Shown: positions 11,993 to 17,896, counted from the first letter of the stretch. The stretch is DNA of 64,000 nt from Clostridia bacterium (GCA_017467865.1 JAFUKG010000043.1:45443-109442); one strand, 5' to 3'. Program-made: numbers and translations. Notes: generated from the letters alone by a model not told the origin.

Positions 11993-11998
11993 AATTTT

Positions 11999-12028
11999 CG
12001 GGGATGCTTGGCACATCCCCGAATTTTT
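11999..12028 (+). terminator. Intrinsic terminator of murC
   Basis: CGGGGATG-cttggca-CATCCCCG followed by AATTTTT. Confidence 0.75.
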
Positions 12029-12030
12029 AC

Positions 12031-12059
12031 TTGAAAAAAGTATGACTATATGCTATAAT
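12031..12059 (+). promoter_or_regulatory. Consensus-like sigmaA promoter that now drives only an 18-codon ychF-like mini-ORF
   Basis: TTGAAA, 17-nt spacer, TATAAT with a TGc extended -10. An AGGAG RBS and the ATG at 12096 follow. Confidence 0.55.
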
Positions 12060-12095
12060 GTACCAGAAAATTATGTTTTAGGAGAATAAATATAT

Positions 12096-12152
12096 ATGAA
12101 GCTCGGAATTGTAAAACATATGCCATTTTCATATCTCTATAAAACTCCATAA
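12096..12152 (+). pseudogene. Displaced duplicate of the ychF 5' end (MKLGIV...), 18 codons
   Basis: ATGAAGCTCGGAATTGTA encodes MKLGIV, the same six residues as the real ychF start at 15091 (ATGAAGCTTGGTATAGTC). It has its own RBS and reaches a stop after 18 codons. Confidence 0.4.
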
Positions 12153-12234
12153 AAGTCGACAAAACCCTTATTATACAAGACTTTTTTGAAGGTCAATTAA
12201 AATTATCTCTATATTTCTCCATAAAACTCCACGC

Positions 12235-12286
12235 AAAAATGGTGTAGTAAATTGTGTAGTAAATAATGTAAAATTTGGTGCGGCAA
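12235..12286 (+). repeat. Left boundary repeat: 12-nt iterations
   Basis: ATGGTGTAGTAA, ATTGTGTAGTAA, ATAATGTAAAAT, TTGGTGCGGCAA. The first unit carries the 13-nt direct repeat. Confidence 0.6.
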
Positions 12287-12332
12287 TTAACTTATTTTTT
12301 ATGAGATAAAGTCAATACAACAATGTTGCACC

Positions 12333-12368
12333 AAAGAAAAAACACGGCATTCGATTGAATGTCGTGTT
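12333..12368 (-). terminator. Intrinsic terminator of the island cargo operon
   Basis: AACACGGCATTC-gatt-GAATGTCGTGTT with one G-T pair, followed on the minus strand by TTTTTTCTTT. Confidence 0.7.
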
Positions 12369-12456
12369 TTGATTTGTGTGCAGTTTTTACTAATTTTGTG
12401 GTATTTTTACTTTAAATAGTGTCGTCTATTAACAGTGTTTTTAATTGATATGCTAT

Positions 12457-12645
12457 TTAATCAAATGACTCAACCAGCTCCAAAACATCTTTGGGCGTAG
12501 TGAAAACATCTATAGTGTCACCATCATCATCAAAAAACTCAACTTCAAAGTCATTTTCATTATATTTATGAACAATGGTTCCTTCTGTGTTGATAGGCAT
12601 CCCTTCAAATTCTTTGACAAGACGTACAACATCAAGTTCTTTCAT
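12457..12645 (-). CDS. DUF4926-like small acidic protein (candidate immunity/antitoxin partner)
   Basis: 62 aa. MKELDVVRLVKEF...EGTIVHKYNENDFEVEF..DGDTIDVF matches the DUF4926 pattern as I remember it. GAAAGGAAG RBS; the start is 5 nt after the upstream stop. Confidence 0.65.
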   Translation of the reverse strand: MKELDVVRLVKEFEGMPINTEGTIVHKYNENDFEVEFFDDDGDTIDVFTTPKDVLELVESFD

Positions 12646-12650
12646 GTATG

Positions 12651-13052
12651 TTATCTTCCTTTCTTATCCGGATAAACAGTTATTATTTTGTATGTTATTC
12701 TTCTATTATCTCTTTGAATAACAACTACGACATTTGCCTTAACTCTTCCACCATTTTTGCCTACTAGCTCGGTGTTGTAGGTGTGTCGCACTCCATACGG
12801 AGTGTTAACAGTTTTACTGGGAGTTTTGTTTGTTATTGAATCAACGACATTTTTATGGAAGGCACGAGAATCGCTTTTAGTATATCCCAGCACATCTTTC
12901 ATGAATTTTGCTTTTGAGCCACCTTTAGGATGCTCTGTATTCAGAAGATAACCTGTTGTTTTCTTCTGACTGTATCTTACATCACTATTTTTTGAAACTG
13001 GTGGATTGCTACCCTTTGTCCTTCCGAAATTTCCGCCCATTCCTCCACCCAT
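12651..13052 (-). CDS. DUF6883-like protein (candidate toxin-type partner)
   Basis: 133 aa with a Gly-rich N-terminus (MGGGMGGNFG), then GYLLNTEHPKGGSKAKFMKDVLGYT and a C-terminal VVVVIQRDNRRITYKIITVYP, which resembles DUF6883 from memory. Its ATG overlaps the DUF4417 stop (TAATG). Confidence 0.6.
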   Translation of the reverse strand: MGGGMGGNFGRTKGSNPPVSKNSDVRYSQKKTTGYLLNTEHPKGGSKAKFMKDVLGYTKSDSRAFHKNVVDSITNKTPSKTVNTPYGVRHTYNTELVGKNGGRVKANVVVVIQRDNRRITYKIITVYPDKKGR

Positions 13053-13717
13053 TAAGCAGTCACCCGCTTTCTGGATTTTGAAAACTCACTTTCAAAAGAA
13101 ATGATATTTATGCCCTTGTCACGATACAGTCCAAAAATCTTATCAGGTGCTCTGCCGTAAACTACAATGTTTTTAGGTGAAAGATTTTCGACAAGCACCG
13201 CAAGACCTGTTTGAAAATATGATCTATCTTCTTTTGTTTTCAAGCAACCGTGTGTACCCACTGCGACAGTTTTGTTCTTCTCAATTCCGTCAAAACAAAA
13301 ATCAAAGGTGCGTTCGTCATTGAAGCGCACATTCGGGATAATTTCAATTCCGTTATTCTGTAACCATACAGCAATTGCTCTGCCTCGATATGTATTCCAT
13401 TGCTGCATAACAAGGGGCATATTGCGGTAAAGACTAAAATCAGGAGAAATAACCCCGTTAAAATTTTTTAGCTTTTCAATATAGGCTTTTGGATTGTTCC
13501 ATAGACGTTCAAAGTTTTTGTCATGCTCGTAAAAAACAACCCATTTATCAAAATCATTGCAAGATTTTGACATAGCCTTTGAAAAGGTGATTACATCGTT
13601 TGGGAGTTTTTGACTTGTTTTTATGCAAGGCAGTTCTATCCCTTCACTGTAATCTGCATTTTCAACCAAGAAAGCGTGAAAAACATCATAATCAGTATTC
13701 AATTTTTTGTCATTCAT
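13052..13717 (-). CDS. DUF4417 domain protein
   Basis: 221 aa. The PDFSLYRNMP, WNTYRGR, GIEIIPNV and FDFCFDGIEKNKTVAVGTHGC motifs match the DUF4417 family as remembered. Confidence 0.65.
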   Translation of the reverse strand: MNDKKLNTDYDVFHAFLVENADYSEGIELPCIKTSQKLPNDVITFSKAMSKSCNDFDKWVVFYEHDKNFERLWNNPKAYIEKLKNFNGVISPDFSLYRNMPLVMQQWNTYRGRAIAVWLQNNGIEIIPNVRFNDERTFDFCFDGIEKNKTVAVGTHGCLKTKEDRSYFQTGLAVLVENLSPKNIVVYGRAPDKIFGLYRDKGINIISFESEFSKSRKRVTA

Positions 13718-13796
13718 TAAATATTTTTTTACCTCCGTAATAGAAAATTTTCTTTTGAGATGTAGATTTTTATCTCAAATACTTGATTTTTCTTTA

Positions 13797-13846
13797 CGGA
13801 TATGCTAAAATACACTTGCGTTATAGGTATATGCTTAGCATATCCG
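13797..13846. promoter_or_regulatory. Operator-like inverted repeats upstream of the cargo operon
   Basis: CGGATATGCTAA-N26-TTAGCATATCCG. The right arm contains the perfect palindrome ATATGCT-T-AGCATAT (13829-13843). Confidence 0.45.
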
Positions 13847-13931
13847 AGATTGAACACATTAATTAGTTGCTGGTAACAACTTTTTGATGTGTTTTTTCTT
13901 TACACACATATAAACATCACCTCCAAAATAA

Positions 13932-14498
13932 TCAAACGGCTTTATCAAACAACGAAAGTAATTGAAGTTCATAGTCCAAGAACTCTGAACTGCCATACTG
14001 CAACCACTTATTATAAAAAGACATAGCGTAATATGCACACTCTTGGCTCAAATCAAATGCTTCGGCAATGTCCATATAATCTTCGGGTTTTATTTTGTGT
14101 ACAAGCGGTGGCGGTGCAAGGGAATACTTTGCAAAGAAGTTGGCTTCGCTTTCCGCCAATTCACTGTGTTCCGTATGTTCTAAAACGATATGTCCGATTT
14201 CGTGCATAATAGTAAAACGAATACGTTCTCTTGATTTTGTGTCGTCATAGAAAATATACCATTGATATGACTCAAAAGGTACAGGACCTTCTTTGAGCAA
14301 CATACAAAAACCATCTTCGCTTACTTCTTTTGCTTTTATCAAAGCCACATCTGTCAAGCCTGAATACTTTCGTAGTTTTATACACATTTTTTGACAAATT
14401 TCAAAACAATCAATAGGAATTCGCCTTATATCATTTTTTGTAAACATATTTACAACTGTTTGTTTGATATTCTCGTATCTGGTGCCAGTTAATCTCAA
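13932..14498 (-). CDS. ImmA/IrrE-family metallopeptidase
   Basis: 188 aa with the HExxH motif HEIGHIVLEH. TTG start 6 nt after GGAGGA, directly downstream of the XRE gene. Confidence 0.85.
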   Translation of the reverse strand: MRLTGTRYENIKQTVVNMFTKNDIRRIPIDCFEICQKMCIKLRKYSGLTDVALIKAKEVSEDGFCMLLKEGPVPFESYQWYIFYDDTKSRERIRFTIMHEIGHIVLEHTEHSELAESEANFFAKYSLAPPPLVHKIKPEDYMDIAEAFDLSQECAYYAMSFYNKWLQYGSSEFLDYELQLLSLFDKAV

Positions 14499-14509
14499 GG
14501 GCTATCCTC

Positions 14510-14836
14510 CTATTTGCTTTGCGTATCAAAAAGTGCGTTGATAAGTTCTCTTTTTTGCTCGTCGGTCATAAGTGCAGCATTTCTTGCAATCAATCTTTGA
14601 ATTTGCGGGTAATCGTTTTTTAAGTCAGCATTTTCCTCTTTATCCAAAAGGTAATCAGAAGTTGTCTGTAAGGCTGTTGCGATGTTAGCCACAATTTCTC
14701 CTCTTGGAACACGGCTGTCTTTTACATATCGTGACATTGTTGCTTCCGTTACTCCTACAATAATTGCAAGTTCTTTTTGTGTCATTCCTTTTTTGTGTAA
14801 GAGTTCTAATATTCTCTCTCCAAATGTTTTAGACAT
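14510..14836 (-). CDS. XRE-family HTH repressor (ImmR-like)
   Basis: MSKTFGERILELLHKKGMTQKELAIIVGVTEATMSRYV helix-turn-helix. Start moved to ATG 14836, 7 nt after GGAGGTG. Confidence 0.85.
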   Translation of the reverse strand: MSKTFGERILELLHKKGMTQKELAIIVGVTEATMSRYVKDSRVPRGEIVANIATALQTTSDYLLDKEENADLKNDYPQIQRLIARNAALMTDEQKRELINALFDTQSK

Positions 14837-14867
14837 TATAAACACCTCCGTTTTATAACTTACCATT

Positions 14868-14896
14868 ATTATAATTGATGTTACTGTTTTTGTCAA
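14868..14896 (-). promoter_or_regulatory. Consensus sigmaA promoter of the XRE/ImmA operon
   Basis: On the minus strand: TTGACA, 17-nt spacer, TATAAT. Confidence 0.65.
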
Positions 14897-14945
14897 GTCT
14901 TTTTTAAAAAACAATATATAAGCCTCTCAAATTAGTAAAATGCCG

Positions 14946-14974
14946 TTGATTTTAAATTCAAAATATGATATAAT
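14946..14974 (+). promoter_or_regulatory. Divergent rightward island promoter reading into ychF
   Basis: TTGATT, 17-nt spacer, TATAAT with a TGa extended -10. Back-to-back with the repressor promoter and 117 nt upstream of the ychF ATG. Confidence 0.6.
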
Positions 14975-15013
14975 GTTTAGAAATCATAGCGAAAGAAAAT
15001 ATTGCCTTTTTGA

Positions 15014-15040
15014 AAAAATGGTGTAGAAATGGTGTAAACC
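15014..15040 (+). repeat. Right boundary repeat
   Basis: AAAAATGGTGTAG (exact copy of 12235-12247) within ATGGTGTAGAA/ATGGTGTAAACC iterations. Confidence 0.6.
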
Positions 15041-15090
15041 ACCGAATTTTTTGCCCAAAAAGCGCTATATATAAGGAGATGTAAAATTTT

Positions 15091-16194
15091 ATGAAGCTTG
15101 GTATAGTCGGACTTCCAAACGTTGGAAAGTCTACTCTTTTTAATGCTATAACGGGAGCGGGAGCAGAGGCGGCAAACTACCCTTTCTGTACCATTGACCC
15201 CAACGTAGGCGTGGTAACGGTGCCCGATGAGCGCCTTGACGTGCTGGCTAAGATGTACTCCCCCGAAAAGATAACAAAGGCTATTATTGAATTCGTTGAC
15301 ATTGCAGGTCTTGTAAAGGGTGCAGCGGCAGGCGAAGGTCTTGGAAACAAGTTCTTGTCTCACATCCGTGAGGTTGACGCAATTGTGCACGTGGTAAGAT
15401 GCTTCGAGAATGCCGACGTTATTCACGTAAACTCAAAAATTGACCCCCTTGACGATATACAGACTATCAACACAGAGCTCATTCTCTCGGATATCGAAAT
15501 TCTCGACAGAAGAATTGACAGAGCTACAAAGGCTCTCAAGGGCGATAAGAGCGTTCAAGCCGAGCTTGATTTCTTAAACCGACTCAAAGCGCACCTTGAC
15601 GGCGGAGAGAGTGCAAGAAGCCTTGAAAGAAGCGAGGACGAGGAGAAGTTTATGGCAGATATCCCTCTTCTGTCTGCTAAGCCTATAATTTATGCGGCAA
15701 ACATCGGTGAGGACGATATCCCCGATATCGACTGTCTCGAAGAGAAAAATGAGAACTACAAGGCGGTAGCCGACTTCGCAAGAAGCGAAAATTCGGGTGT
15801 GCTTCCCATCTGCGCTAACATTGAAGCGGAGATAGCAGAGCTTGACGACGAAGAAAAGGCAATGTTCCTTGAGGACTTAGGGCTTAAGACCTCGGGCCTT
15901 GACAGACTTATAAAGGAAAGCTACACACTTCTCGGTCTTATAAGCTTCCTTACCGCAGGACAGCCCGAGGTAAGAGCATGGACTATCAAGAAGGGCACCA
16001 AGGCGCCCCAGGCGGCAGGTAAGATACACTCGGATATCGAAAGAGGCTTTATCAGAGCCGAAATTATTGCCTACGACGACCTTATCGCCTGCGGCTCAAT
16101 GAACGCCGCGAAAGAAAAGGGACTGCTCAGAAGCGAAGGCAAGGACTATATAATGAAAGACGGAGACGTAACGCTGTTTAGGTTTAACGTATAA
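15091..16194 (+). CDS. ychF: Ribosome-binding ATPase YchF
   Basis: 367 aa with MKLGIVGLPNVGKSTLFNA G1 motif, a TGS-like C-terminus and the ending ...VTLFRFNV. Confidence 0.95.
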   Translation: MKLGIVGLPNVGKSTLFNAITGAGAEAANYPFCTIDPNVGVVTVPDERLDVLAKMYSPEKITKAIIEFVDIAGLVKGAAAGEGLGNKFLSHIREVDAIVHVVRCFENADVIHVNSKIDPLDDIQTINTELILSDIEILDRRIDRATKALKGDKSVQAELDFLNRLKAHLDGGESARSLERSEDEEKFMADIPLLSAKPIIYAANIGEDDIPDIDCLEEKNENYKAVADFARSENSGVLPICANIEAEIAELDDEEKAMFLEDLGLKTSGLDRLIKESYTLLGLISFLTAGQPEVRAWTIKKGTKAPQAAGKIHSDIERGFIRAEIIAYDDLIACGSMNAAKEKGLLRSEGKDYIMKDGDVTLFRFNV

Positions 16195-16228: not shown

Positions 16229-16360
16229 AATGCAGAGTGCTGAATGCTGAATGCTGAATTAAGGAAAATTTGCCTAAAGGCAAATTAAATATAATTGTAA
16301 ATTTCGGCAAAGCCGAAATTGTCCACAATTCTGCATTCATCACTCATCATTCATCATTCA
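16229..16360 (+). repeat. Heptad-repeat palindromic element, copy B (complete)
   Basis: AATGCAG/AGTGCTG/AATGCTG/AATGCTG, AATTAAGG, two hairpins (AAATTTGCC-taa-AGGCAAATT and AAATTTCGGC-aaa-GCCGAAATT), then the inverted arm CAATTCTGCATTCATCACTCATCATTCATCATTC. Confidence 0.85.
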
Positions 16361-16460
16361 AAAAAGGCTGTTTGGTGCACTATCCGTAAGGAAAGTGCAC
16401 CAATTGTTTCTAATTAAAAATAGGCAAAATTTGTAGAAATATTCAGGTGACGCCAAGTGT

Positions 16461-16676
16461 CTATTTTTGCACATTGTGATTATTTGTTCTGTCAAGTAAG
16501 TAATCTATACTCACGTTATAGTAATCTGCTAATTTTATCAAAATTTCTGCTGTCAATGAAATAACACCTGTTTCGTATTGCGAATATGTGTTTTGAGAAA
16601 CGTTTAAATATTTTGCGATTTCCTTTTGCTTTATATCTCTATCTTCTCGTATCCCTCTTAAATTCTTGAATTGCAT
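16461..16676 (-). CDS. XRE-family HTH regulator
   Basis: MQFKNLRGIREDRDIKQKEIAKYLNVSQNTYSQYETG. Start placed at ATG 16676, 5 nt after AGAGGTGA. Confidence 0.85.
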   Translation of the reverse strand: MQFKNLRGIREDRDIKQKEIAKYLNVSQNTYSQYETGVISLTAEILIKLADYYNVSIDYLLDRTNNHNVQK

Positions 16677-16702
16677 AATAATCACCTCTTGATTATTATG
16701 CA

Positions 16703-16780
16703 ATATCTGTAATAAAGATATTGACTTTTATCTGTAATACAGATATAATATATTTGTCGATTGACTTCGACAAATATATT
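16703..16780 (+). promoter_or_regulatory. Divergent promoter/operator region
   Basis: TTGACT (16721-26), 17-nt spacer, TATAAT (16744-49). The palindrome TATCTGTA-A-TACAGATA (16729-45) fills the spacer, and a second TATCTGTAAT lies at 16704. Downstream is a 14-bp-arm palindrome AATATATTTGTCGA-ttgact-TCGACAAATATATT (16747-80). Confidence 0.6.
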
Positions 16781-16794
16781 ATGGAGGGCTTTAT

Positions 16795-17283
16795 ATGCAA
16801 CCTATACTGTACATGACATCTTTACTAACTTTTTACTTAAAGGGGGAAATTCACAAGGATCAGAATTTTATTAATTTGAAAAAGCCAAACACAATTTTAA
16901 GTTTTATTCCTTTGGGCGCCAAAAAAGATTCAATACCTGTTTCACAATTATCATCTGTTGAATCAAATTTTAAACTCCACTTGGGTTCATTAATTCTCGG
17001 AGCAATTATTGCTATTGTTGGTTTAGGTATGATTTCTGAAAGCTTTGTAGTTGCGTTGATTTTTATGTTGATAGGTGTAAACAAAGCGATAACTGCTTTT
17101 GAAACCATCCTTACTATAACGACAACCGACGGATATGCAAGAGACATTTCTTTCTTAATTTTTGAAAAATCGAAGGCAGAATTAGCCGAAACTCAAATCA
17201 AACAAATTATTTCTGACAGATTGGATGATACTAACAATCGAGTTCAAACAGATAGAATAGTAGAAACAAATAGCAATAAGTAA
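16795..17283 (+). CDS. Hypothetical membrane protein (two central TM helices)
   Basis: 162-aa ORF 7 nt after GGAGGG. Hydrophobic core LGSLILGAIIAIVGLGMISESFVVALIFMLIGV. No family recognised. Confidence 0.6.
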   Translation: MQPILYMTSLLTFYLKGEIHKDQNFINLKKPNTILSFIPLGAKKDSIPVSQLSSVESNFKLHLGSLILGAIIAIVGLGMISESFVVALIFMLIGVNKAITAFETILTITTTDGYARDISFLIFEKSKAELAETQIKQIISDRLDDTNNRVQTDRIVETNSNK

Positions 17284-17399
17284 CATTGTCAATTCACCTG
17301 TTTTTGCAAAATATGTAACCCGCTATGGGACTGTATCAAAATTCGCAATTAATTTGTGGTCGGCAAATTTTCTTCACTCTTAACTATCACTTATTACTT

Positions 17400-17435
17400 A
17401 AAGATAAAAGGAGCTTTCGCTCCTTTTATCTTTTC
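17400..17435. terminator. Bidirectional hairpin terminator
   Basis: AAGATAAAAGGAGC-tttc-GCTCCTTTTATCTT. Contains the stop codon of the minus-strand gene. Confidence 0.6.
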
Positions 17436-17845
17436 ACCATATATACGAAAAACACTGTAATTGACAGGAAAATTAAAATTATGCTCACCAATCCAAGGGT
17501 TATGGCAATCTGAGAGGTCATAGAGGATGCGATGAAATAAAGCGCGAAGCCGAGAGCTCCGAGGATAAAGGAGACAAGTGACAGTTTAGTTTTAATTCCC
17601 GTGTTCTCACCGCATTTCAAGAGTACCATTTCTTTTATGAAGCTTGTGACGTTCATAACGGCAAAAATGACGGGGCAAGAGAACATCATAATAAATGCCA
17701 GATTTGTAGTGTAGTTATAGGTCAGGAGTCCTGCTTCGTTATGTTTGTTCATAAAGTACGCTAAAAAGAAGTCTGCGACAATAATACTGACCCCTGAGAT
17801 TATCATTATATTTCTTGCGATTTTTTCTATTCTTTCTTTTTTCAT
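17426..17845 (-). CDS. Hypothetical polytopic membrane protein
   Basis: 139 aa counted from ATG 17845, 7 nt after AGGAGGG. Four predicted hydrophobic segments. Confidence 0.6.
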   Translation of the reverse strand: MKKERIEKIARNIMIISGVSIIVADFFLAYFMNKHNEAGLLTYNYTTNLAFIMMFSCPVIFAVMNVTSFIKEMVLLKCGENTGIKTKLSLVSFILGALGFALYFIASSMTSQIAITLGLVSIILIFLSITVFFVYMVKR

Positions 17846-17896
17846 ATAAATCCCTCCTTTATAGCTTATTATAATAAAGGAGCGATAAAAAGTCAA

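Follow-up and report, generated by a model that had tools for sequence, protein, structure and literature searches.

The region between murC and ychF of a Clostridia bacterium (GCA_017467865.1, JAFUKG010000043.1:45443-109442) was found to contain a 2995-bp non-autonomous island, which is very probably of the cis-mobilizable element (CIME) type and would have been inserted site-specifically at the start of ychF by a Tn916-type integrase that is now absent from it. All coordinates are positions in the window, i.e., the whole stretch of 64,000 nt that was analysed. The source genome is a 1.59-Mb assembly of 45 contigs and represents an 82%-complete metagenome-assembled genome (MAG); most of the relatives are also fragmented MAGs, and their contigs often break at the ychF elements. 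CIMEs are elements in which the integration and transfer genes were lost and the attachment sites attL and attR were retained, and a three-step model of decay and accretion was described for them (PMC5704250). The window island contained an 18-nt core at both ends and two arms homologous to those of integrative mobilizable elements (IMEs), and it contained no integration, excision or transfer genes of its own. It was assigned to the CIME type because both cores and both arms are kept in the absence of int, xis, relaxase and primase genes.

The island was found to be bounded by an imperfect 18-nt direct repeat of the ychF start, located at 12096-12113 and 15091-15108 with a spacing of 2995 nt. 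The attL core (12096-12113, plus strand; ATGAAGCTCGGAATTGTA) contained the stranded first six codons of ychF (MKLGIV), the reading frame of which stops after 18 codons at 12152. The attR core (15091-15108, plus strand; ATGAAGCTTGGTATAGTC) forms the working start of ychF, and the gene ends at 16194. A degenerate 18-mer pattern (ATGAAGCTNGGNATNGT) was found at only two places in the whole genome, and these were the two cores. The cores differ from each other at three positions within 7 nt, all of them synonymous third codon positions. Each variant base was found to occur in ychF alleles of other lineages, which would fit a core that was copied from the ychF of another host and brought in by the element.

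The preliminary description of this DNA had proposed an exact 13-nt direct repeat (AAAAATGGTGTAG) as the boundary of the island, and had suggested that relatives with an empty site should be looked for. Empty sites were found in G006, the closest relative (YchF 99% identical), and in G003, where murC is followed by the native promoter and then directly by ychF. The alignments of G006 to the window left and right of the island have exactly 18 nt in common; therefore the insertion measures 2995 bp and is bounded by the duplication of the ychF start, whereas the 13-mers are internal to it, at distances of 139 nt from the left junction and 77 nt from the right one. The proposed boundary was accordingly abandoned.

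The sequence outside the left junction was found to retain the old upstream region of ychF. The hairpin of the murC terminator (11997-12023, terminator scan) is the last chromosomal feature, followed by the stranded native ychF promoter TTGAAA-17-TGcTATAAT (12031-12059, plus strand, 11/12 in the promoter scan) and the stranded ribosome-binding site (RBS) AGGAGA (12080-12085, plus strand). The stretch 12013-12112 showed an 82% match to the stretch located directly upstream of ychF at the empty site of G006. The native promoter, RBS and six codons that are cut off at the left end are best read as the signature of an insertion. At the right end, the RBS AAGGAGA (15073-15079, plus strand) preceding the ychF ATG was found to be island-borne, as was a promoter TTGATT-17-TGaTATAAT facing ychF (14946-14974, plus strand, promoter scan), from which ychF would now be transcribed.

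The composition of the island was also found to differ from that of its flanks. The GC content was 34.0% in the island (12114-15090) against 44.7% in murC and 48.3% in ychF, whereas the GC content at third codon positions was 28-33% in the island genes and 49-52% in the flanking genes. The five A/T-rich minus-strand genes of the preliminary description were found as described, and encoded an XRE regulator, an M78/ImmA metallopeptidase, DUF4417, DUF6883 and DUF4926 proteins (open reading frame (ORF) list, Pfam). Islands of this type were present at or near ychF in five of the 16 genomes of the genus, a distribution that could also be read as an island ancestral to the genus with the empty sites as secondary deletions. 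The probability of that reading is close to nil, as the cut-off native start and the low GC content mark an insertion and the identity of the island segments reaches 94-97% between species that share only about 81% in ychF, which points to recent transfer; empty sites made by excision would moreover still imply site-specific mobility. The reading as an insertion was therefore retained.

The 13-mer was found at 12235-12247 and 15014-15026, where the preliminary description had placed it, and no third copy was present in the window even when one mismatch was allowed. The two copies are the only ones in the full assembly, and 0.17 matches are expected from shuffles of the window. Short tandem iterations, which had likewise been described, were found at both copies. 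The left units AAATGGTGTAGT, AAATTGTGTAGT and AAATAATGTAAA occupy 12237-12272 with a period of 12, whereas the right units AAATGGTGTAG and AAATGGTGTAA occupy 15016-15037 with a period of 11. The left (P') arm (12114-12331, plus strand) contained an internal 29-nt repeat (12132-12160 and 12204-12232) followed by the arm-type repeats with the left 13-mer. The right (P) arm-type repeats (15016-15037, plus strand) include the right 13-mer and are overlapped by a weak hairpin with a T-run (15030-15044).

Both arms were found to be shared with elements at the ychF start of other genomes. The left arm showed 90% identity over 140 nt to the attL of the ychF IME of G010, the integrase of which lies beyond the contig end and was read only in the same-arm element of G015. 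The right arm shared 22 identical nt with the sequence that follows the integrase stop of G015 and with that just upstream of the G010 ychF, and 15009-15038 was 100% identical to the 30 nt after the integrase stop of the G383 IME. In a scan of 51 genomes of the family, a 19-mer pattern of the repeats matched only such elements, and a control pattern gave no match. The repeat unit was found to vary with the integrase lineage (GGCGTA, GGTGTA, GGAGTA, GGTACA, GGTGCGG or TGTGGCGG) and to be identical in both arms wherever both arms are readable. The left ends of six elements shared a layout of core, TTTCAT, CTCTATAAA, about 50 nt and tandem repeats, and the repeats were located at a fixed distance from the core in both arms.

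The 13-mer was therefore read, from sequence comparison, as part of an arm-type repeat that is present in both arms of the attachment site. In Tn916, the DR2 repeats are bound by the N-terminal domain of the integrase, and by analogy the arm repeats of the ychF elements would be bound by the corresponding domain. It is extremely improbable that the tandem GGTGTAG repeats are XRE operators, iterons or other regulatory boxes. Short tandem repeats commonly bind regulators, and the window repeats are located close to the operon terminator and within the leader of the promoter that the island provides for ychF; however, the same repeats were found after the integrase stop in the G015 and G383 elements, which do not contain this XRE, and upstream of the G010 ychF. 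The variant units follow the integrase lineage, the distance from the core is fixed in both arms, the repeats are unchanged in G014, the XRE of which is 44% identical, and one unit is left in G002, which contains no XRE. The repeats are thus treated below as arm sites.

The preliminary description had also suggested a search for a full-length relative with an integrase, and integrase-carrying relatives at the same site were found among the 401 genomes of the order that were covered by the integrase search. Integrase homologues were present in 18 of these genomes. Fifteen of them (64-99% identity, seven families) contained xis and int followed by two to three tandem 11-nt repeats, an RBS and an ATGAAR core that starts ychF; the integrase of G009 precedes a core fused to another ORF instead of ychF, and two other homologues (55% identical) are located elsewhere. 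In four relatives from the genus (G012, G002, G015 and G010), ychF was found to be preceded by AAAATGG(C/T)GTA repeats, a replaced RBS and ATG, with the C-terminus of a tyrosine integrase just before the repeats in the first three and a contig end within the repeats in G010. The xis gene of G002 is followed by int; its product matched Tn916-Xis (E 1e-34), and Int contained the Phage_integrase and SAM_3 domains. G357 contained a complete element of 13.5 kb with the same core at both ends and GGTGCGG repeats in both arms, and with genes for TetR/ABC cargo, a primase, a Mob_Pre relaxase, xis and int. This element was recognised as an IME because of its relaxase, primase, xis and int content. The start of ychF is thus the attachment site of a Tn916-type xis/int IME family that is distributed over at least seven families of the order.

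A few further observations were made at the sites of these elements. The G009 locus (C53, 300-1000) contained the right end of an IME, with an int gene that shows 99% identity to its G002 counterpart, GGCGTA repeats and an RBS, followed by ATGAAATTAGGTATAG fused to a BNR/sialidase-like ORF. A secondary integration site may have been used here, or the junction may reflect a chimeric start or a further element in a stack. In G010 (C27, 10575-12273), orphan immunity-type genes were found directly beyond the attL of the IME. They are homologues of immunity genes from the DUF4417 cassettes of G002 and of contig C42 of the source genome, and could have been left behind by an older island that was stacked there. 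Contig C31 of the source assembly (1-2307) was found to be the end of another, unrelated mobile element. It contained a fragment of a tyrosine recombinase of 297 aa, 96% identical to the product of the gene that precedes xis-int in G002, and after it a large serine recombinase of 543 aa. This second recombinase of G002 was set aside, its counterpart in the source genome being that fragment. The small serine recombinase beside the G002 island was considered as the mobility enzyme and rejected, as it is part of the neighbouring IME and is absent from the window genome; among the loci retrieved, its homologues were found in only three others (L112, 29-43%; G290 and G321, 29-32%).

The absence of a recombinase, which had been noted from the ORFs of the region, was upheld. 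No integrase, excisionase, relaxase or structural gene was found in the murC-ychF interval (ORF list, Pfam, tblastn), and no integration, excision or transfer gene was found among the five island genes in Pfam, PHROG and NCBIfam scans. A tblastn search with int, xis and the serine recombinase gave no match in the island, and a primase was likewise absent from it. Rfam and tRNA scans of the region gave no match. The set of a tyrosine integrase, Tn916-Xis and relaxase that marks an autonomous Tn916-type IME was thus not found in the island, whereas it was found in the relatives of G002 and G357.

The preliminary description had taken the region for the immunity-proximal stump of a temperate element fixed next to ychF. 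In the corresponding reading, a temperate phage or an integrative and conjugative element (ICE) would have left the stump, the 13-nt repeat would be its att site or target duplication, and the XRE/ImmA pair would be the surviving lysogeny switch. An XRE regulator together with ImmA is the classic switch of Firmicute prophages and ICEBs1, and the pair of back-to-back promoters found in the promoter scan at 14868-14974 and the lack of a recombinase would also agree with such a stump. The empty-site alignment, however, refutes the 13-mer as the boundary, and the repeats co-vary with the integrases of the ychF elements. A blastn search of 50,697 phage records with the island DNA found no match, and none of the phage structural, lysis or replication genes by which a prophage remnant is recognised was found in the island (Pfam, PHROG scans). 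The autonomous relatives are relaxase-bearing mobilizable elements, and the plus-strand promoter module is kept whatever the type of XRE, with a different one in G014 and none in G002. A stump of a phage or ICE is therefore considered very unlikely. What stood of the description is that a derivative of an integrative element was inserted next to ychF and contains no recombinase; the parent of this derivative is a Tn916-type IME and not a temperate phage.

The distribution of the regulators also spoke against a lysogeny switch. Of 78 other Clostridia loci, 32 contained the XRE-ImmA-DUF4417 trio with its gene order and spacing unchanged, and the nearest large neighbours of the trio there were housekeeping genes. 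Among 92 large neighbouring ORFs from 31 trio loci, the 25 commonest families were housekeeping families and none was an integrase or phage family. The trio loci contained no ychF core, except for those of two genus members, and the readable integrase-bearing ychF elements contained no trio. The XRE and ImmA genes were therefore assigned to the cargo cassette and not to a lost prophage, because the trio recurs among housekeeping genes without the ychF core.

The XRE helix-turn-helix (HTH) repressor is CapH-like and is encoded at 14510-14836 on the minus strand (Pfam HTH_26 and HTH_3; PADLOC capH E 1.6e-12). Its likely start is the ATG at 14836, which follows a GGAGG RBS and gives a protein of 108 aa; a TTG at 14914 was rejected as the start since it lies upstream of the promoter. 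This promoter, a perfect TTGACA-17-TATAAT (14868-14896, minus strand, 12/12 in the promoter scan), precedes the XRE-ImmA operon and possibly the cargo. The ImmA/IrrE-type M78 metallopeptidase of 188 aa is CapP-like and is encoded at 13932-14498 on the minus strand (Pfam PF06114, E 1.7e-10; PADLOC capP E 2.1e-13). The HTH repressor thus adjoins an M78 metallopeptidase upstream of an effector operon, as in the CapH/CapP pair, in which an ImmA-like peptidase cleaves the repressor after DNA damage (Lau et al., bioRxiv 10.1101/2022.04.27.489752). By analogy, XRE and ImmA would probably derepress the cargo after DNA damage or in response to single-stranded DNA. Control of the plus-strand promoter by XRE was found to be unsupported, as its module is kept with the different XRE of G014 and in G002.

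A palindrome ATATGCT-A-AGCATAT with a third AGCATAT half-site was found at 13797-13846, between the ImmA and DUF4417 genes. The intergenic stretch is kept together with DUF4417 in G014 (84%), whereas the XRE of that genome is only 44% identical. The palindrome is therefore unlikely to be the XRE operator.

Tandem arrays and decaying copies were found among the relatives of the island, and these represent the other stages of the three-step model of PMC5704250. In G002 and G009, an integrase-less island adjoins a second element, with the core linking the right end of the former to the left end of the latter, and a further tandem junction was found in G290. A separate contig of G002 contained xis and int ahead of the core at ychF. 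In G009, an int with 99% identity was found on a separate contig, beside a core that starts a different ORF. The G012 sequence upstream of ychF (C32, 159-1112) contained an intact Tn916-type xis followed by a broken integrase (residues 1-26, 30-111, 102-141 and 348-399), which can be taken as a snapshot of integrase decay at the ychF site.

Integrase-less islands similar to that of the window were found in four further species of the genus. The island-borne promoter is part of a right-end module of about 160 bp, which was 86-95% identical in the islands of G009, G014 and G002; in G008, the last 57 nt of the module are assembled and were 95% identical. The nucleotide identity of ychF to these four species was about 80-81%. 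The island cargo showed 97% nucleotide identity to that of G008, as compared with 81% for ychF, and the stretch from XRE-ImmA to the right end was 94% identical to that of G009. The interiors of the islands were found to be mosaic, with break points near 13800-13900 and 13006. The identity of 94-97% between islands of species that differ so much more in ychF, together with the mosaic interiors, points to recent exchange.

Several observations weigh against the reading of the window region as a site-specifically inserted CIME, or limit it. The sister islands of G014, G002 and G009 contained no recognisable left arm and the left arm of G008 was truncated, so most copies would be fixed, and homologous recombination, more than site-specific mobilization, may be the main route by which the lineage spreads. 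Because these sisters lost or truncated the left arm, the window copy appears to be the least decayed island. Among the loci retrieved, no integrase-bearing element with XRE-ImmA-DUF4417 cargo was found; the island may have arisen by simple internal deletion of one element or, equally possibly, by recombinational replacement of the interior. The N-terminus of Int matched the arm-binding domain of Tn916 only below the threshold (E 0.099). No homologue of the ychF-family integrase above 28% identity was found in the source assembly, although at 82% completeness a cognate integrase may have escaped the assembly. The metagenome scan for the predicted attP junction gave no match, although such scans are uninformative here; a scan with the left-arm motif gave two matches, both of them chance matches in unrelated coding DNA, and was discarded.

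A more specialised explanation was also considered, in which the integrase-less islands are adapted hitchhiker satellites of the ychF IMEs that exchanged int for a strong ychF promoter, keep the arm sites and are actively moved by the Int and Xis of the IMEs, in trans or by accretion. The shared right-end module and mosaic interiors in species whose ychF genes are only about 80% identical, the high identity of the island segments, the tandem position with IMEs in two genomes and the intact att sites of the window would all agree with it. The explanation is nevertheless doubtful, as three of the four sister copies are without a left arm and one is truncated, which implies that they undergo no site-specific excision. 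Among the 401 genomes of the order, the full module was found in this genus only, neither the attP junction nor a circle was found in the metagenome scan, and homologous recombination across the conserved flanks can explain the mosaicism.

In the proposed mechanism, a Tn916-type tyrosine integrase not encoded in the island would have inserted the element at the first 18 nt of ychF. The element would provide a substitute RBS and start codons, so that ychF stays intact, and the native promoter, RBS and six codons would be left at attL. The integrase-less lineage would in addition provide its own promoter (14946-14974) for ychF. The GGTGTAG-type Int and Xis of a related element could excise the island in trans; alternatively, an integrase-bearing element could land next to the island and the pair could be excised together by accretion. 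The cargo would form a self-contained module, in which the XRE and M78 regulators are located upstream of DUF4417, the BECR-Tox3 toxin and DUF4926.

The DUF4417 protein of 221 aa is encoded at 13052-13717 on the minus strand (Pfam PF14386, E 8.6e-65) and also matched the C-terminal half of phrog_940, annotated as 'nuclease'. Its AlphaFold model (m1689467a5776) showed an alpha/beta fold with a pLDDT of 89.6. No PDB sequence match was found in the profile search and no PDB fold match at E<=1e-3; the only annotated neighbours in BFVD were phage queuine tRNA-ribosyltransferase-like or TIM-barrel proteins (best E 1e-3, TM about 0.4-0.5). This likeness hints weakly at an enzyme of the base-exchange or glycosidase type. 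DUF4417 was tried as a hidden recombinase or nuclease and this was rejected, with no match in the PDB and only the weak likeness in BFVD. The phage homologues of DUF4417 were distant (at most 41% identical), and in phages the domain was found to be fused to ParB-type domains.

The DUF6883 gene follows at 12651-13052 on the minus strand and encodes a predicted RNase toxin of 133 aa (BECR-Tox3; Pfam PF21814, E 2.8e-14) with a conserved N-terminal tag, MGGGMGGNFGRTKGS. The last gene encodes the DUF4926 protein of 62 aa, a predicted immunity protein (12457-12645, minus strand; Pfam PF16277, E 1.8e-12). DUF6883 was identified as BECR-Tox3 by structural classification, with DUF4926 as its conserved downstream partner (preprint 10.64898/2026.08.28.747851), and the partnership was found here in 13 loci. 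The cargo operon ends with an intrinsic terminator (12332-12375, minus strand, terminator scan), which is shared with the G014, G002 and G008 islands at 97-99% identity.

The ORF after DUF4417 was found to start on the DUF4417 stop in 64 of 72 related loci, as the DUF6883 gene of the window does. Most of these ORFs start with MG[AGT]G..GGFG.T.G followed by C-termini that were unrelated as judged by eye, and the G014 version contained a ParB-like domain in place of DUF6883. A constant N-terminus with variable C-termini is the pattern of polymorphic toxins, and the window cassette contained the toxin domain and the small immunity gene that belong to such systems. By analogy, DUF6883 would be an RNase that is neutralised by DUF4926. 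Two more cassettes of DUF4417, a Gly-rich-tagged toxin (PT-TG-like) and immunity genes were found in the source genome, at C9:25331-27257 and C42:2-1625. Their DUF4417 proteins were 73% and 84% identical and they contained no ImmA; a small HTH gene only was found upstream of the C9 cassette. The genome of 1.6 Mb thus contained three cassettes in total, which differ in their toxin C-termini. A wider proposal, that the islands are self-maintaining hitchhikers which exchanged the integrase gene for a strong promoter that maintains expression of the essential-like GTPase/ATPase gene ychF, that they keep GGTGTAG arm sites and travel with incoming IMEs in trans or by accretion, that their payload is an undescribed polymorphic toxin system switched by DNA damage, and that DUF4417 acts on or escorts the toxins carrying the 15-aa Gly-rich tag, is put forward as speculation that is unlikely to hold in full.

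Two side observations were made in the neighbourhood of the island genes. The promoter segment 14928-14983 (GCCGTTGATTTTAAATTCAAAATATGATATAATGTTT) was found to recur at C1:187-242 of the source genome and at C33:7143-7180 of G009 with 86-87% identity, and weaker copies were found in other genomes of the order; the segment may be a common host promoter type that was captured by the island. A second AT-rich indel (31.6% GC) was found at 16237-17427, just downstream of ychF, encoding an 80-aa XRE regulator and a 162-aa membrane protein. This indel was absent from G006, in which the homologue of the next gene (17426-17896) lies at most about 190 bp after ychF.

The first 18 nt of ychF are thus a widely used attachment site in gut Clostridia. 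The elements at this site rebuild the ychF start and sever the native promoter, which would make the expression of a conserved housekeeping gene dependent on mobile DNA. A natural series is formed by intact IMEs, decaying integrases, att-flanked integrase-less islands and fixed islands, together with tandem arrays, and could be used for studying the fixation of genomic islands. The recombinase-less island of the window is explained by ordinary biology with exact junctions. Its cargo of CapH/CapP-like regulators, DUF4417 and a tagged toxin with immunity, all with predicted functions, offers a lead for toxin and defence biology.

Among the known systems, the ychF elements resemble Tn916 and the P/P' arm systems of the lambda type, as the relatives encode Tn916-Xis and a tyrosine integrase with an N-terminal extension and contain arm repeats at a fixed core distance. 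The three differences within 7 nt of the cores would fit a recombination without strict overlap homology, as in Tn916. In contrast to the loose target preference of Tn916, the ychF family was found to be strictly site-specific, and the island encodes neither protein. The pneumococcal satellite prophage PhiBM6001.4 is integrated upstream of ychF (PMC10383233) and was the only other use of ychF as an integration site found in the literature search. It is likewise a small element with an attachment region just upstream of ychF and imperfect att repeats; however, it is an intergenic satellite prophage that encodes an integrase and occurs in a different phylogenetic group, and the likeness drawn here is one of site.

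The regulators of the cargo resemble CapH/CapP of cyclic oligonucleotide-based antiphage signalling systems (CBASS) and other defence operons and ImmR/ImmA of ICEBs1 in the presence of an HTH repressor and an M78 peptidase upstream of effectors. Unlike in CBASS, the downstream genes of the window encode DUF4417 and a toxin with immunity, and the repressor comes first and is co-directional with the cargo; the cleavage and its activation by single-stranded DNA would apply by analogy. The order of DUF6883 followed by DUF4926 and the variable C-terminal toxin domain were found to be like those of the BECR-Tox3/DUF4926 and MuF-type phage polymorphic toxins (10.64898/2026.08.28.747851). The window toxin differs from the MuF-type toxins in being a short free-standing ORF with the 15-aa Gly-rich tag, which is translationally coupled to DUF4417 and not fused to MuF, and no export or packaging route was evident for it.

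The closest comparison is with the CIMEs of Streptococcus thermophilus, which were derived from elements of the ICESt1/ICESt3 type (Pavlovic 2004, Bellanger 2011, as reviewed in PMC5704250). As in these, the island contained no integration or transfer genes and kept its att ends, and its relatives showed a series of accretion and decay; the likeness is drawn here from genes and att sites, and cis-mobilization would follow by analogy. The target of the island differs, being the 5' end of ychF whereas the streptococcal CIMEs use the 3' end of fda or a tRNA gene. The parent would likewise differ, as a Tn916-type IME of uncultured gut Clostridia, and the element gives its target gene a promoter and a start.

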